From: an uncultured Desulfatiglans sp.
Lineage (GTDB): Bacteria; Desulfobacterota; DSM-4660; Desulfatiglandales; HGW-15
Reading direction: 5' to 3'
Assembly (NCBI GenBank): GCA_964610475.1
Contig: CAZSZQ010000004.1
Span: 1-56,669, forward strand
DNA length: 56,669 nucleotides
Within the stretch, counting starts at the first letter, position 1, and each line of letters starts with the position of its first letter. The position numbers and the translations under genes were made by a program. The notes beneath the pieces were generated by a model. That model made no database searches, was not told where the DNA came from, and saw nothing but the letters and a program-made list of their open reading frames with translations. Positions 16,453 through 26,050 of the stretch are shown piece after piece.

Positions 16453-17016
16453 ATGTTTTTTGCATATAAACAGAAAAGGGAAAAGGATATGAGAGACTCA
16501 GGGAATATTCAGGGAAACAATGAGATAATAAAAAAATTACGCTCAATAACCCCGCTTAAACATATAAGAGACGAGGATATTAAAGGACTTTTAAAATCCG
16601 GCAGAATAATAAAATATGACCCGGGTGAAGTCATTATAGACGAAGGCGAATACAGCAGCTTGATATATTTCTTAATACAGGGTGAGACGGGCATCAAAAA
16701 GGAAGGTGAAATAATAAACACTCTTAAACGGTGTGGCGATCTTTTTGGTGAAATGAGTATAATCGACAATGCCCCGAGATCAGCTTCAATTGTTGCCATT
16801 ACCACTACGGTATGTCTGGCAATTGATACTTCATATACTCAGACTTTAAAGGGAAATGATAGAAATGCTTTTAATTCGGTTTTATACAGAATTTTTGCCG
16901 AAATACTAGCGGAAAGACTCAGACAGATGGATGAAGAACTTATCAAAGTAAAAAATGAAAATTATAATATTGTTACTCAGCTTGAGATGTTAAAAACCGG
17001 TGCTGACCAGAGGTAG
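16453..17016 (+). CDS. Cyclic-nucleotide-binding domain protein without a DNA-binding domain (C-terminal coiled coil)
   Basis: 187-aa ORF. cNMP-binding signature GDLFGEMSIIDNAPRSASIVA. The C-terminus (LRQMDEELIKVKNENYNIVTQLEMLK) is coiled-coil-like, not an HTH. The start may instead be ATG 16489. Confidence 0.75.
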   Translation: MFFAYKQKREKDMRDSGNIQGNNEIIKKLRSITPLKHIRDEDIKGLLKSGRIIKYDPGEVIIDEGEYSSLIYFLIQGETGIKKEGEIINTLKRCGDLFGEMSIIDNAPRSASIVAITTTVCLAIDTSYTQTLKGNDRNAFNSVLYRIFAEILAERLRQMDEELIKVKNENYNIVTQLEMLKTGADQR

Positions 17017-17026
17017 TTACCCTGAT

Positions 17027-17230
17027 ATGCTTGATTGCTTAAAATGCAAATATTATTATATAACATGGGACAAAAACTTTCCATGCGGATGCAGGGCTAT
17101 GGGTTTTAAAAGCAGAGAACTGCCCTCAGCTGCTGTGCTTGATAATTCAGGTATGGATTGTCTTCAATTTAAAACAAAAACAAACAGGAAAAAGATAAGC
17201 AGGGTATTTTTAAAGGCAAAACTTATCTGA
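17027..17230 (+). CDS. Small Cys-rich hypothetical protein
   Basis: ORF 17000..17230. The internal ATG at 17027 gives MLDCLKCKYYYITWDKNFPCGCRAMGFKSRELPSAAVLDNSGMDCLQF (CxxC...CxC...C). It follows the cNMP gene with a small gap. No family is assigned. Confidence 0.45.
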   Translation: MLDCLKCKYYYITWDKNFPCGCRAMGFKSRELPSAAVLDNSGMDCLQFKTKTNRKKISRVFLKAKLI

Positions 17231-17320
17231 TCACATAGTATTATTTTTATCCAATAAACAACTTTTCAATTCTCTTTCCAAGATTTTTGTTCAACTCACT
17301 CTCATGACAGATTGATTACC

Positions 17321-17349
17321 TTGACATATTTCCCTCTCCTTGAGAATAT
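17321..17349 (+). promoter_or_regulatory. Sigma-70-like promoter upstream of the bicupin gene
   Basis: TTGACA (17321-17326), a 17-nt spacer, then GAATAT (17344-17349). Confidence 0.35.
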
Positions 17350-17401
17350 GAATCACTGATGGTCTATAGTGAAGTAAATGTTTTTGAGGTGGATTTTACT
17401 A

Positions 17402-18328
17402 ATGGTTGATTTAAGATCACAATCAAAATATGAAAAGTACGCTATCAGGCAACCGGATATGGATCTATTTCCCAAAATTAAGGGGCGTGAACCTATTATG
17501 ACTTATCTAAATAACAAACTGTTTCCTGATTTGCCCTACCATATTGATCTGAGCTTTATTACTTCTAAACCTGAACCGCATATTTTTGAACATACTTTAA
17601 CTTATGACAGGATATATATTTTCTGGAGCACAGACTACAAATATCCCCAGAATTTAGGTGCTACTATTGAGTGTTATATTGGCGGGCAGAGAACCGAATT
17701 CAGTAATACAACGAGTCTCTTTATACCAAAAGGAACAAGACTTGGACCGGTCAACTGGCTGAAATGGACCGCTCCGCATATCATGATGCAATTTATTCTT
17801 GGAACAGGTGACACCTCTGTTTTAACCAAAAGCGGAATGTTCCAGCCCAAAAACGTTCTACCTAAAAAAACCGATGAGATCAATTATGAACAATATGTAG
17901 TAAGAAGCCCCCTGAGAGAAGCTGGAGACGCACGCCAGGAACCATACAGAATGTATCCGACTATGACCTACATGAGTTCACGGCAGTGTAAGGCGAATAA
18001 TAACTATATTGAATTCGGTTATATCTGGGATAAGGTGGAACCGCCTGTGCCAAGGATGACCCACTACAACTTCAACGAAATAGTCCTTCACTTCGGAAAC
18101 GACCCTGACAACCCGACCAATCTGGGATGTCACATGCGATTCGATGTTGGCAATGATAAACTTGAATTTGATACCAATTACTGTATATGGCTGCCAAAAG
18201 GTATGACCCACGGCCCGCTGATGTGGTACGATGTCAAGAGGCCTTTTATTGAAATGGCTATTATGCTTGATGCCGGAACAATTGAACAATATGCTGATGA
18301 TGCGAATTTTGAACTGAACATTAAATAG
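17402..18328 (+). CDS. Two-domain (bicupin-like) protein of unknown function, paralogous to the gene pair 23594..24097 and 23123..23560
   Basis: ORF opens at 17378, but GAGGTGG sits 9 nt before ATG 17402. Two cupin motif-2 copies are present: FIPKGTRLGPVNW and WLPKGMTHGPLMW. Each is preceded by a DNP/NLG block (YPQNLGATIECYIGG and DPDNPTNLGCHMRFDVGND). Confidence 0.6.
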   Translation: MVDLRSQSKYEKYAIRQPDMDLFPKIKGREPIMTYLNNKLFPDLPYHIDLSFITSKPEPHIFEHTLTYDRIYIFWSTDYKYPQNLGATIECYIGGQRTEFSNTTSLFIPKGTRLGPVNWLKWTAPHIMMQFILGTGDTSVLTKSGMFQPKNVLPKKTDEINYEQYVVRSPLREAGDARQEPYRMYPTMTYMSSRQCKANNNYIEFGYIWDKVEPPVPRMTHYNFNEIVLHFGNDPDNPTNLGCHMRFDVGNDKLEFDTNYCIWLPKGMTHGPLMWYDVKRPFIEMAIMLDAGTIEQYADDANFELNIK

Positions 18329-23122: not shown

Positions 23123-23560
23123 CTATTTGTATCTAAGTGTTGGCCCGGCAGTAAAATGCATGATCGGTTGGTTTACTTTTTTAATAATTAAGGGGCCATG
23201 TTCAATACCTGCCGGGATATAGGAGGCAAAACTCTCAGTAATATTATAGGTTTTGCCGTCTATTGTGAACTCTATCTCTGCGCCAAGGTCGCAAATGTTA
23301 TCATAATTATATCCATAAAACCCTATCAGTTCTCCCCATGAATGTTTATGTGCTTCAACCTTTGTGACCCCTTTATTGAATTCTTTCCCGGGAACAATCC
23401 ACATTGCCTCACTGTAGAAATCTGCCTCAGGGACAACATCCCCATCAAGATGGGCAATCCTTCTGAATAGCTTTGTATCCATCTTTGGCCTGAACGAGGG
23501 ATATGTCACGTTTGGTTTATCAACCATAACAAAAAGCTTTTCATATTTTTTTCCGGTCAT
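23123..23560 (-). CDS. Monocupin protein (paralog of the bicupin C-terminal half)
   Basis: 145-aa ORF. Cupin motif 1 HKHSWGE (HxHxxxE) and motif 2 IPAGIEHGP (PxGxxH), plus DNICDLGAEIEFTIDG. Confidence 0.65.
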   Translation of the reverse strand: MTGKKYEKLFVMVDKPNVTYPSFRPKMDTKLFRRIAHLDGDVVPEADFYSEAMWIVPGKEFNKGVTKVEAHKHSWGELIGFYGYNYDNICDLGAEIEFTIDGKTYNITESFASYIPAGIEHGPLIIKKVNQPIMHFTAGPTLRYK

Positions 23561-23593
23561 TTTGTCTCCTTTATATACCCTTTATATCTGATT

Positions 23594-24097
23594 CTATGAA
23601 TAACTCTGACCCGGGCCAACAGTATAATGGAATACGGGCGATTCCATATTGCTTAACACCTTTAAGGGACAATGTACCATGCCGGCAGGTATATAAACCA
23701 TAAAGCTCTTATCAAGTATATATTTTTCATCCTCCAGCCAGAACTCTATTGTCATGCCCAGATATGAAGGGTTATCAGAATGGCAGCCAAACATTGTAAG
23801 TACCTCTGAAAAATTATGAGAATGCGGGGCTACCCCTGCTGCCTTTTCAAGCTCCTCCCTTGTCAGAATGGGTTTTGGCCTCTGATCTTTGAATGTCCGG
23901 GGCCATATCCACGTGCTCTCCGAATAAAATGCCCCTGGAATCACATCGCCGTCCATCCAGTTGATATGCTCAAGTTCAAGACGATACCCGTCTTTATCAT
24001 AACCTCTCCCGATTTTCTGATCTCCTTTATAGTCAGGCATCTTCTCAATATGTTTTAGATCAGTACATATATAAGGGCCATATTTTGAATTTTTCAT
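23594..24097 (-). CDS. Monocupin protein (paralog of the bicupin N-terminal half)
   Basis: ORF opens at 24133, but GGAG sits 9 nt before ATG 24097 (MKNSKYGPY...). Cupin motif 1 HSHNFSE and motif 2 IPAGMVHCP, plus DNPSYLGMTIEFWLED. Confidence 0.65.
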   Translation of the reverse strand: MKNSKYGPYICTDLKHIEKMPDYKGDQKIGRGYDKDGYRLELEHINWMDGDVIPGAFYSESTWIWPRTFKDQRPKPILTREELEKAAGVAPHSHNFSEVLTMFGCHSDNPSYLGMTIEFWLEDEKYILDKSFMVYIPAGMVHCPLKVLSNMESPVFHYTVGPGQSYS

Positions 24098-24277
24098 CTG
24101 GATATTCTCCTTCTGGAAACGCCTGTAAGGCATCTCCGGTTAAAATATTTTATCTCAATCGTTGATTAAAAAGAGGCGGATTATATTGAGTAGACCACAG
24201 GGTGTCAAGGTATTTTCTTATGATTTTTCAGTATGTTATAGCGAACTAAACCATTATGATATTGTTCTGTCAGGCGA

Positions 24278-24318
24278 AATTCCTGCCCTACGGTAAAAGA
24301 CCGGGCAGGGCAGGAATT
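24278..24318 (-). terminator. Strong hairpin between hcp and the cupin pair (possible terminator or attenuator)
   Basis: Perfect 12-bp inverted repeat AATTCCTGCCCT (24278-24289) / AGGGCAGGAATT (24307-24318), with an inner CGGT/ACCG pairing. It lies 12 nt after the hcp stop. There is no obvious U-tract. Confidence 0.45.
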
Positions 24319-24329
24319 ATTTAGAAAGG

Positions 24330-25958
24330 TTAACCTAAAATTGTCTTAAGATCATTATCAGGCGTTGAAATCGGCATGATATTGAAGTTTTTTACCAGTA
24401 CATCGAGCACATTCGGCGTAATAAAGGCAGGCAGGGACGGCCCCAGCCTAATATCCTTTATACCGAGATATAATAAAGTTAAAAGAATTGCACATGCCTT
24501 CTGCTCATACCATGAGAGTATCATAGAAAGAGGAAGATCATTTACTCCACAGTTAAACGCCTTGGCCAGAGCAACTGCTATCTGTATGGCAGAATAGGCA
24601 TCATTACACTGACCTATATCAAGTAGTCTGGGGATACCGCCGATATCTCCAAGTTTTTTATCAAAAAAGCGGAATTTTCCACAGGCAAGCGTTAAAACAA
24701 CACAATCGGAGGGTATCTTTTCAACAAATTCAGTGTAATAGTTTCTCCCTGGCTTTGCTCCATCGCATCCTGCAACAAGGAAGAAACGCCTGATAGCACC
24801 TCCTTTGACCGCTTCAATCACCTTACCCGCCACTCCCATGACTGCATTATGTGCAAACCCGGCTATTACCGTACCCTTGTCTTCATCTTTTGAAAATCCC
24901 GTCATCTCAAGAGACTTATTTATTACAGCAGAAAAATCAGTATTGCGAACATGCTTTACTCCTGGCCACCCTACCAGACCTGTAGTAAAAAGATTTAGGG
25001 TATAACTCTCCTGCGGTTTTTGAATACAGTTTGTGGTCATAAGGATCGCCCCCGGGAAAGCGGCAAATTCTTTTGCCTGGTTCTGCCATGCAGTACCATA
25101 ATGCCCGTAAAAATGGCTGTATTTCTTCAGATTCGGGTATCCATGTGCTGGAAGCATCTCTCCGTGGGTATATACATATATGCCTTTTCCCTCACTTTGT
25201 TTAAGGATTGTTTCAAGATCAATCAGGTCATGACCGGAAACAAGTATAGCCTTTCCTTTTTTATAACCAAGGGGAATAGATATCGGAACAGGGTGACCGA
25301 ACCGTGACGTATGGCCTTTGTCCAGAAGCTCCATTGCCTTGAGGTTTATCTCACCGCATTTCAGGGCAAGACCCACCCAGTCATTTAATGTGAGATTTTT
25401 CTTGAGCATTGATGTAAGTGTTTCATGGATATATGCATACACTGCCTCATCCTCCTGGCCCAGAAGATGCGCATGATCCGCATAGGCACAGAGGCCCTTT
25501 ATTCCATATAATGTGGTGTGCATAAGAGAAAGAATATCAGGATTAATAGATGTATCGGACTTGGGTCCTACACTCTCACCTTTAGCTACAAGTTCGCTGA
25601 CAGAGCTGCCGGGAATATATATGGCGGCATCTTCTTTAAAGTCTGCCTTTCCTCCTGCTGCAGAAACCTTTTTCTTAAGCTGATCCCTGAGTTCGGCGCA
25701 TTTTTTAATGAGATTTACAAATCTGTTGCTGTCAAAATCCACATTGGTCAGTGTGGAAAAGACGGCCTCACAGGTAAACACATTGACATCACGGTCACTG
25801 ATACCCGCCTTTCTTCCTTCTACTGCATACAGGGATAATCCTTCTACCATATAAATAAGCAGATCCTGTAGCGCTGCAACATCCGGCTGTTTTCCGCACA
25901 CACCGATCTTTGTGCATCCCTCTCCCTTGGCTGTCTGTTCACATTGATAACAAAACAT
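24330..25958 (-). CDS. hcp: Hybrid-cluster protein (hydroxylamine / NO reductase), class I Cys spacing
   Basis: 542-aa ORF. The N-terminus MFCYQCEQTAKGEGCTKIGVCGK has Cys-X2-Cys-X7-Cys-X5-Cys spacing. AAGGAGGAG Shine-Dalgarno upstream. Confidence 0.95.
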   Translation of the reverse strand: MFCYQCEQTAKGEGCTKIGVCGKQPDVAALQDLLIYMVEGLSLYAVEGRKAGISDRDVNVFTCEAVFSTLTNVDFDSNRFVNLIKKCAELRDQLKKKVSAAGGKADFKEDAAIYIPGSSVSELVAKGESVGPKSDTSINPDILSLMHTTLYGIKGLCAYADHAHLLGQEDEAVYAYIHETLTSMLKKNLTLNDWVGLALKCGEINLKAMELLDKGHTSRFGHPVPISIPLGYKKGKAILVSGHDLIDLETILKQSEGKGIYVYTHGEMLPAHGYPNLKKYSHFYGHYGTAWQNQAKEFAAFPGAILMTTNCIQKPQESYTLNLFTTGLVGWPGVKHVRNTDFSAVINKSLEMTGFSKDEDKGTVIAGFAHNAVMGVAGKVIEAVKGGAIRRFFLVAGCDGAKPGRNYYTEFVEKIPSDCVVLTLACGKFRFFDKKLGDIGGIPRLLDIGQCNDAYSAIQIAVALAKAFNCGVNDLPLSMILSWYEQKACAILLTLLYLGIKDIRLGPSLPAFITPNVLDVLVKNFNIMPISTPDNDLKTILG

Positions 25959-26008: not shown

Positions 26009-26050
26009 ATTATAGTCTAATACAAAAACCTTTACATTGATTTATGTCAA
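26009..26050 (-). promoter_or_regulatory. FNR/CRP-family (HcpR-type?) class II activated promoter of hcp
   Basis: TTGAT-ttat-GTCAA palindrome (26037-26050; 9/10 match to TTGAT-N4-ATCAA). Its centre lies 32 bp from the centre of a perfect TATAAT (minus strand, 26014-26009), the geometry of a -41.5 site. Confidence 0.65.

Follow-up and report, generated by a model that had tools for sequence, protein, structure and literature searches.

The small metallocupins MarH epimerase (6j4b), TM1459, archaeal phosphomannose isomerase (PMI, 7zvy) and the DMSP lyase DddK (5tfz) consist of one beta-barrel with His/His/Glu/His metal ligands in two cupin motifs, and they are homo-oligomers built from a single gene. 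In the canonical bicupins, such as quercetinase YxaG (1y3t), OxdC (1uw8), MncA (2vqa) and the vicilins, two barrels are packed as one unit. Cupin genes have also been described in association with hcp, the gene for the hybrid cluster protein (hydroxylamine reductase). In Desulfovibrio desulfuricans 27774 a gene for a 'cupin fold protein', called ylbA in the regulatory model, adjoins hcp and is strongly induced by nitric oxide (NO), and the authors consider Ddes_1828-1829 probably one operon (PMC5701242); in D. gigas a Cupin_2 protein (DGI_2602, 'cupin 2 barrel') belongs to the HcpR1 regulon and is induced by S-nitrosoglutathione (GSNO) (PMC4534486). Here we describe two adjacent monocupin genes, A and B, that lie downstream of hcp in a 56,669-nt stretch of DNA (the window) from an uncultured Desulfatiglans sp., together with a 308-aa bicupin encoded 5 kb away.

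Our best reading, to which we assign a probability of about 0.7, is that A-B is a heteromeric metallocupin, self-contained and uncoupled from hcp, that acts as an enzyme in the anaerobic metabolism of small molecules. A and B would each supply one barrel of a heteromeric two-barrel protein (a pseudo-bicupin) that binds metal, and since each keeps a putative site of three His and one Glu, their dimer would have two metal centres. The two genes would form a self-contained operon under their own strong sigma-70 promoter, and their place after hcp would reflect the inherited synteny of one Desulfatiglandales-type clade rather than functional coupling. The bicupin would be related to them more remotely, as a paralogue of subfamily C (tandem C-C) whose N barrel has degenerated. 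Fold and metal motifs of A and B are ordinary cupin features and as such already known; not previously described, as far as we found, are this branch of the cupins, the consistent pairing of its paralogues, which have fused repeatedly and independently, and the expansion it has undergone in Dehalococcoidales.

Two monocupins encoded as a pair

An earlier, sequence-only reading of the window had reported two neighbouring monocupin genes 33 nt apart and about 230 nt after hcp, both with full HxHxxxE and PxGxxH motifs, and this description holds. Subunit A (167 aa; 23594..24097, minus strand) lies in an open reading frame (ORF) of 23594-24133, with its start placed at 24097 by a conserved ribosome-binding site (RBS) and ATG, in agreement with homologue lengths of 164-170 aa. 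Subunit B (145 aa; ORF 23123..23560, minus strand) follows after a 33-nt spacer (23561..23593, minus strand) that contains its AAGGAGA RBS. The hcp stop codon and the A start are separated by 232 nt. The metal motifs read HSHNFSE (residues 92-98) and PAGMVH (137-142; a conserved Cys comes next, HCP) in A, and HKHSWGE (71-77) and PAGIEH (116-121) in B. Ligands H92, H94, E98 and H142 of A are invariant in 30 relatives; across 27 relatives B keeps H71, H73 and H121 without exception, with at least 90 % conservation of E77. The two proteins are 35 % identical (BLASTP, E 2e-23) and are each other's closest match, well above the 308-aa protein. Like the small metallocupins, each has one barrel and the same ligand set in two motifs; they differ from them by a conserved N-terminal extension of ~50-85 residues (KY.KY...P..R / FYSE..W motifs) and by being encoded as an obligatory pair of paralogues.

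The residue right after the distal metal His distinguishes the subunits. It is a Cys in at least 90 % of A subunits (PAGMxHCPL) and a Gly in B subunits (HGPL), the positions compared being 23666-23683 in the window (A residues 139-144) and 23192-23209 (B residues 118-123). Since the sites differ systematically at this position, they may be non-equivalent.

The pairing was followed through 73 loci encoding B relatives, obtained from a scan of one genome per GTDB species, from which hidden Markov models (HMMs) were built for four subfamilies: A, B, an A-like third type (A2) and monocupin type C. Upstream sequence is long enough to judge in 67 loci; in 65 of these, B is immediately preceded on the same strand by an A-type gene, at a median gap of 50 nt, and the remaining two are A-B-B arrays. 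A is the more conserved partner, with the higher identity in 56 of the 65 pairs. The two subunits also occur as one polypeptide. An uninterrupted 324-aa ORF in a Leptospirales metagenome-assembled genome (L067) scores 146 bits for subfamily A and then 162 for B with both motifs intact, a 337-aa fusion in L030 scores 133 and then 145 bits with ligands kept by its A half only, and further A-B fusions were found in P0118 (182 then 162 bits), P0334 and P0409. An apparent C-A fusion in L039 was discarded as an artefact of a masked run of Ns. Single A-then-B polypeptides are Rosetta-stone evidence in general for a predicted interaction between A and B, and from the pairing, the fusions and the conserved ligands we infer heterodimer formation and metal binding.

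Two-barrel proteins with varied combinations of subfamilies make up about one third of the 148 newly retrieved top representatives of the superfamily that were classified. Taken with the pairing, the fusions and the bicupin model described below, they lead us to a working unit that appears to be two barrels, supplied by one gene or by two, either as separate A and B genes or as fusions (A-B, A2-A2 or C-C). A plus B, or an A-B fusion, would plausibly reproduce the canonical two-barrel packing. The heterodimeric metallocupin predicted by the sequence-only reading is thereby supported by the 65 pairs and by true fusions elsewhere, and loses the basis it was given, a Rosetta-stone pair inside this locus. 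It is very probable that A and B form a heteromeric two-barrel module with its own operon, and they would then be a clean example of heteromeric cupins made from paired paralogues. We found no literature on this family or on a 'heterodimeric cupin'.

In some Dehalococcoidales five or six paralogous monocupin genes stand in tandem, in the order C, A2, A, B, A2 (L016:990-3600, L032:110-2640, L033:8400-11370, L042:8900-11500), and these arrays are bordered by genes for a conserved lipoprotein-like protein (c16) and for a small membrane protein (c11). Such arrays hint at higher-order hetero-oligomers or at a multi-enzyme pathway.

The family has no name in the databases. Against the Pfam model Cupin_2 (PF07883, gathering threshold 27.2 bits) B reaches 15.9 bits and A 14.7 (E 0.025), the bicupin has no match, no NCBIfam family matches any of the three, and database names of members are all 'hypothetical' or a generic cupin label; the profile search suggested by the sequence-only reading as a way to name the family has thus been run, and no Pfam or NCBIfam family claims these proteins. 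Structure prediction places them in the superfamily. The AlphaFold2 (AF2) model of B (mean predicted local distance difference test, pLDDT, 87.7) is an all-beta cupin barrel with 237 Foldseek matches in PDB at E <= 1e-3, of which the top 50 listed are all cupins, and the models of B and of the bicupin both have the predicted cupin fold. The motif pair HxH(x)3-4E plus PxGxxH is present in A and B and only partly in the bicupin. Best fold matches of B are small metallocupins (template modelling score, TM, 0.45-0.58; 10-19 % identity), and the best match of A in profile searches against all PDB sequences is MarH (E 0.0025), with nothing better among the profile queries. YlbA structures are present in PDB. 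A YlbA or (S)-ureidoglycine aminohydrolase (UGlyAH) type was considered for A-B and the bicupin and rejected, as no such entry was returned by profile searches (A1, A3, A4) against all PDB sequences at E <= 10 or stood among the Foldseek top 50 of the bicupin model.

A HMMER search of 1.84 billion representative proteins returned 1,154 relatives at E <= 1e-3, 622 of them at E <= 1e-10. This is a sizeable unnamed branch of the cupins, about 1,150 clusters at 50 % identity, lacking a Pfam model and a close solved structure. Its members are found chiefly in anaerobic Dehalococcoidales, where they are most abundant, and in relatives of sulfate reducers. A metagenome scan for intermediate relatives returned three loci only, the single-protein query reaching close relatives only. 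Spread to archaea, suggested by a 'Candidatus Hadarchaeota' contig (L069), was rejected: its gene hits match those of the Dehalococcoidales locus L068 in position and score, so that L069 is probably a binning artefact rather than an archaeal occurrence.

The 308-aa bicupin as a distant paralogue

The bicupin (308 aa; 17402..18328, plus strand) had been read as the fused version of A and B, with A and B collinear with its N and C halves. By BLASTP against the whole protein, A scores 1e-10 and B 2e-8, and the best match is the C half in both cases, at 1e-10 for A, which reaches just 0.002 with the N half. The 'KYEK' that was said to link B with the C half is at bicupin residue 9, in the N half. 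The subfamily HMMs separate the proteins clearly: the N half scores 99 bits for subfamily C against 26 for A and 28 for B, and the C half 127 bits against 43 and 35. A fusion of A and B is ruled out by these two results, and the idea of a fused and a split version in one locus falls with it. The bicupin is a C-C paralogue, assigned by HMM scores, motifs, AF2 and Foldseek, and the locus therefore contains no Rosetta-stone pair. This removes an attractive but unsupported story of a split and fused cupin pair serving Hcp.

No HxHxxxE is present anywhere in the bicupin, and PxGxxH occurs in its C half only. The complete N-barrel metal site is kept in 67 of 114 full-length members of its wider family, from which it follows that the window's clade lost the N-barrel ligands secondarily. 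The AF2 model (pLDDT 93.7; predicted TM score, pTM, 0.90) is a single confident two-barrel unit, and its top Foldseek matches are canonical bicupins (E ~1e-11, TM ~0.5), including MncA and seed storage globulins. YxaG, OxdC, MncA and the vicilins thus share with the window bicupin the packing of two barrels as one unit, whereas TM is only ~0.5, identity is no more than 12 %, no sequence-level relationship is found, and the window bicupin has only one intact metal site. For the most part the known canonical bicupin enzymes rely on O2 or on the redox chemistry of Mn, and the strict-anaerobe hosts considered here are unlikely to do so.

In the window's clade all metal ligands of the N barrel (17402-17850) are lost, the motif positions reading HTLTYDR and PKGTRLG. 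Upstream of the bicupin on the plus strand lie a gene for a cyclic-nucleotide (cNMP)-binding protein without a DNA-binding domain (16453-17016) and a 76-aa Cys-rich ORF (17000-17230) that is kept at 61-68 % amino-acid identity in the syntenic relatives L001, L010, L012 and L045. All three genes, spanning 16453-18328 on one strand, may be a single unit. Outside the window's clade, relatives of the bicupin are not linked to hcp.

The hcp neighbourhood and its transcription signals

The hcp gene (24330..25958, minus strand; NF003658 E 3e-248, PF03063) is a neighbour of A-B and probably no part of the module. Of 72 loci, 8 have hcp within 10 kb of A-B; the same eight carry the bicupin, and in the B tree they all fall in a single clade, labelled Desulfatiglans/Desulfatiglandales. 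This clade shares a syntenic block of ~16 kb with genes for phosphofructokinase, a histidine kinase, hcp, A, B, an HDOD kinase, a response-regulator kinase, the bicupin and the cNMP-binding protein; because the whole block is syntenic, the adjacency to hcp counts only once in evolutionary terms. The next relatives beyond this clade whose upstream DNA is readable, at 64-83 % identity, have no hcp there: L014 (A 83 %, B 71 %), L013 (B 66 %), L086 (A 66 %) and L090 (A 64 %). Nor is there one near A-B in any of the ~60 Dehalococcoidales/Chloroflexota loci. Co-occurrence of A-B with hcp, which the sequence-only reading had offered as a check on its proposal, is thus confined to one clade and appears not to be phylogenetically independent.

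Transcription signals between the two genes agree with this distribution. A sigma-70 promoter matching the consensus at 12 of 12 positions (TTGACA-17-TATAAT; 24180..24208, minus strand) lies between A and a hairpin that follows hcp. Its -35 hexamer is invariant in nine of nine syntenic relatives and its -10 is TATAAT, or TATACT in two, where the spacer sequence around the hexamers has a mean identity of only 58 %. The hairpin stands just 3' of the hcp stop (24280..24318, minus strand; -26.8 kcal/mol, z -4.7). It had been described as lacking a U-tract, and indeed it is real and strong with a tail of only UUU; its stem is conserved in most relatives and deleted in L010 and L045. Probably it marks the end of the hcp transcript.

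The hcp promoter contains an FNR/CRP-type palindrome, TTGACATAAATCAA (26037..26050, minus strand, position read from the sequence), centred ~41 nt upstream of the hcp transcription start site inferred from a TATAAT at ~26014-26009, the position of a class II activator. It is the sole perfect TTGAYN4RTCAA match in the whole window as scanned, and the promoters of A-B and of the bicupin have none. The arrangement suggests FNR/HcpR-type control of hcp alone, and co-regulation of A-B with hcp through a shared operator was rejected on the same ground and because a 20-nt block conserved at the A-B promoter, described below, has no second copy in the window. With its own promoter, the hairpin and no FNR-type box, A-B probably belongs neither to the hcp operon nor to an HcpR-FNR regulon. 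Judged on the one-clade linkage, the conserved promoter of A-B and the missing box, the nitrosative-stress role that had been proposed from hcp adjacency is not supported, and there is probably no specific functional coupling of A-B to hcp.

Just upstream of the A-B -35 lies a 20-nt block, TAGTTCGCTATAACATACTG (24229-24248, minus strand), which occurs once in the window; L006-L009, the closest four relatives, have kept it, and it may serve some regulator as an operator. A riboswitch or other known RNA in the A-B leader was considered and rejected, as no Rfam match was found in the leader (E <= 1) or elsewhere in the window.

Likely chemistry, rival explanations and neighbours in other lineages

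Apart from A no neighbour of B is universal, and the genes around it vary by clade. In ~17 loci, nearly all from Dehalococcoidales, the order is a MoaD-like gene, a tungsten-type aldehyde:ferredoxin oxidoreductase (AOR), A, B and DUF169, followed by methylmalonyl-CoA mutase genes. The Desulfobacterales locus L013 has an AOR 2 kb upstream together with an FAD oxidoreductase, a URO-D gene and an MFS transporter, and L014 has an iron-dependent alcohol dehydrogenase (Fe-ADH), a LarA-like and an altronate-dehydratase-like gene. URO-D-like genes with MFS or MatE transporters accompany A-B in L086 and L090 (URO-D and MatE in the latter), an HGD-type dehydratase with its activase in L002, and a molybdenum hydroxylase in L005.

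We propose that A-B would catalyse an O2-independent, redox-neutral, metal-assisted isomerisation, epimerisation or lyase step on a small carbonyl or hydroxy-acid compound, whose substrates or products would be handled by the varying neighbours, namely tungsten AOR, Fe-ADH, short-chain dehydrogenases/reductases (SDRs), URO-D-like proteins and transporters. Chemistry independent of O2 is proposed because the hosts are strict anaerobes, and the nearest relatives by profile and by fold, the MarH epimerase, archaeal PMI and the DddK lyase, are non-redox small metallocupins. A substrate-diversified metalloenzyme of this kind fits the neighbour pattern and the anaerobic hosts. The reaction class itself, isomerase, epimerase or lyase, is proposed tentatively.

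Several observations weigh against this reading of A-B as an enzyme uncoupled from hcp. With no universal non-cupin neighbour, the substrate class is a guess, and the association with AOR and DUF169 is largely that of a single clade of Dehalococcoidales and may likewise reflect inherited synteny. Nine genomes, in which B falls to as little as 76 % identity, keep the order hcp-A-B, the weak terminator after hcp could allow read-through and hence co-expression, and other cupins beside hcp in Desulfovibrio are induced by NO (PMC5701242), so that a stress role stays conceivable. These last points are also what would favour A-B as a partner of Hcp, co-expressed with it and acting in NO, hydroxylamine or nitrosative-stress chemistry: the gene order is kept in nine syntenic Desulfatiglandales-type genomes plus L085, the U tail of the hairpin is weak, and the Desulfovibrio genes, unrelated to this family, lie beside hcp or in the HcpR regulon and respond to NO or GSNO (PMC5701242, PMC4534486), so that a second, convergent association of a cupin with hcp would be meaningful. 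The sequence-only reading had recognised no cupin among described hcp partners, which these two studies contradict. Ddes_1828 and DGI_2602 are, like A-B, cupin-fold genes beside hcp in a sulfate-reducer lineage. As judged from annotations and profile searches, they belong to the Cupin_2/YlbA-like type, whereas A, B and the bicupin stay below the Pfam Cupin_2 threshold and show no detectable YlbA-type relative. The Desulfovibrio genes are HcpR-dependent (PMC5701242, PMC4534486), and Ddes_1828 probably shares an operon with hcp (PMC5701242), whereas A-B has a conserved perfect promoter of its own and the FNR-type box stands at hcp only. The syntenic block reduces the adjacency to one observation, 64 of 72 loci have no hcp nearby, including L014 with A at 83 % identity, L013, L086 and L090, and the family is most abundant in Dehalococcoidales, among catabolic neighbours. 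We regard a partnership with Hcp as improbable, and equally so the narrower proposal that Desulfatiglandales recruited the A-B heterodimer to it, for example to process a nitrogen-oxide-derived or damaged metabolite. Such recruitment would have a parallel in the unrelated ylbA-type cupin of Desulfovibrio that is induced by NO together with the adjacent hcp. If it had occurred, cupin-Hcp partnerships would have arisen at least twice and would point to an unrecognised step of anaerobic nitrosative-stress chemistry.

Somewhat less improbable, though still unlikely, is that A-B is a dedicated accessory or partner enzyme of tungsten AOR that makes or converts its aldehyde or acid, the hcp-linked copy having been displaced. 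The MoaD-like gene, AOR, A and B share one strand in the ~17 loci, two or more subclades of Dehalococcoidales (L022/L054 and L048-L075) have the linkage, and it recurs at a distance of 2 kb in Desulfobacterales L013. However, most of the AOR-linked loci group together in a single clade of the B tree, no AOR stands within 10 kb in many loci, the window among them, and we found no literature joining AOR with a cupin or with DUF169, nor any on a cupin and AOR in Dehalococcoidia. We give least credence, and very little, to A-B as a non-enzymatic protein for metal binding, storage, chaperoning or sensing, in the way that the bicupin MncA binds Mn. MncA and seed storage globulins are among the Foldseek matches of the bicupin, the perfect consensus promoter without a recognisable regulator site suggests high constitutive expression, and no universal neighbour defines a substrate; yet single genomes (L016, L033, L042) hold multi-copy arrays of diversified paralogues, as is typical of enzymes that have diversified in substrate, oxidoreductases and transporters predominate among the neighbours, and neither a signal peptide nor a gene for metal transport was noticed in the loci that were examined, though there was no systematic search for either.

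Dehalococcoidales are anaerobes that abound in the subsurface but have been little cultivated, and most of their catabolism is known by inference; the recurrence of this diversified module beside AOR, DUF169, URO-D-like genes and transporters makes it a reasonable target for biochemical characterisation.

Two of the neighbouring families recur in their own right. DUF169 (PF02596) lies directly downstream of A-B in ~12 Dehalococcoidales loci (L049:4577-5320, L057, L060, L063 and L074, among others) and also directly upstream of a bicupin relative in L080 (7404-7940), a recurring link between two uncharacterised families. A gene of the URO-D family (PF01208) stands next to or near A-B in several lineages outside Dehalococcoidales (L013:7982-9319, L086:3431-4666, L090:3931-4857, L002:1813-3048), often together with MFS or MatE transporters.

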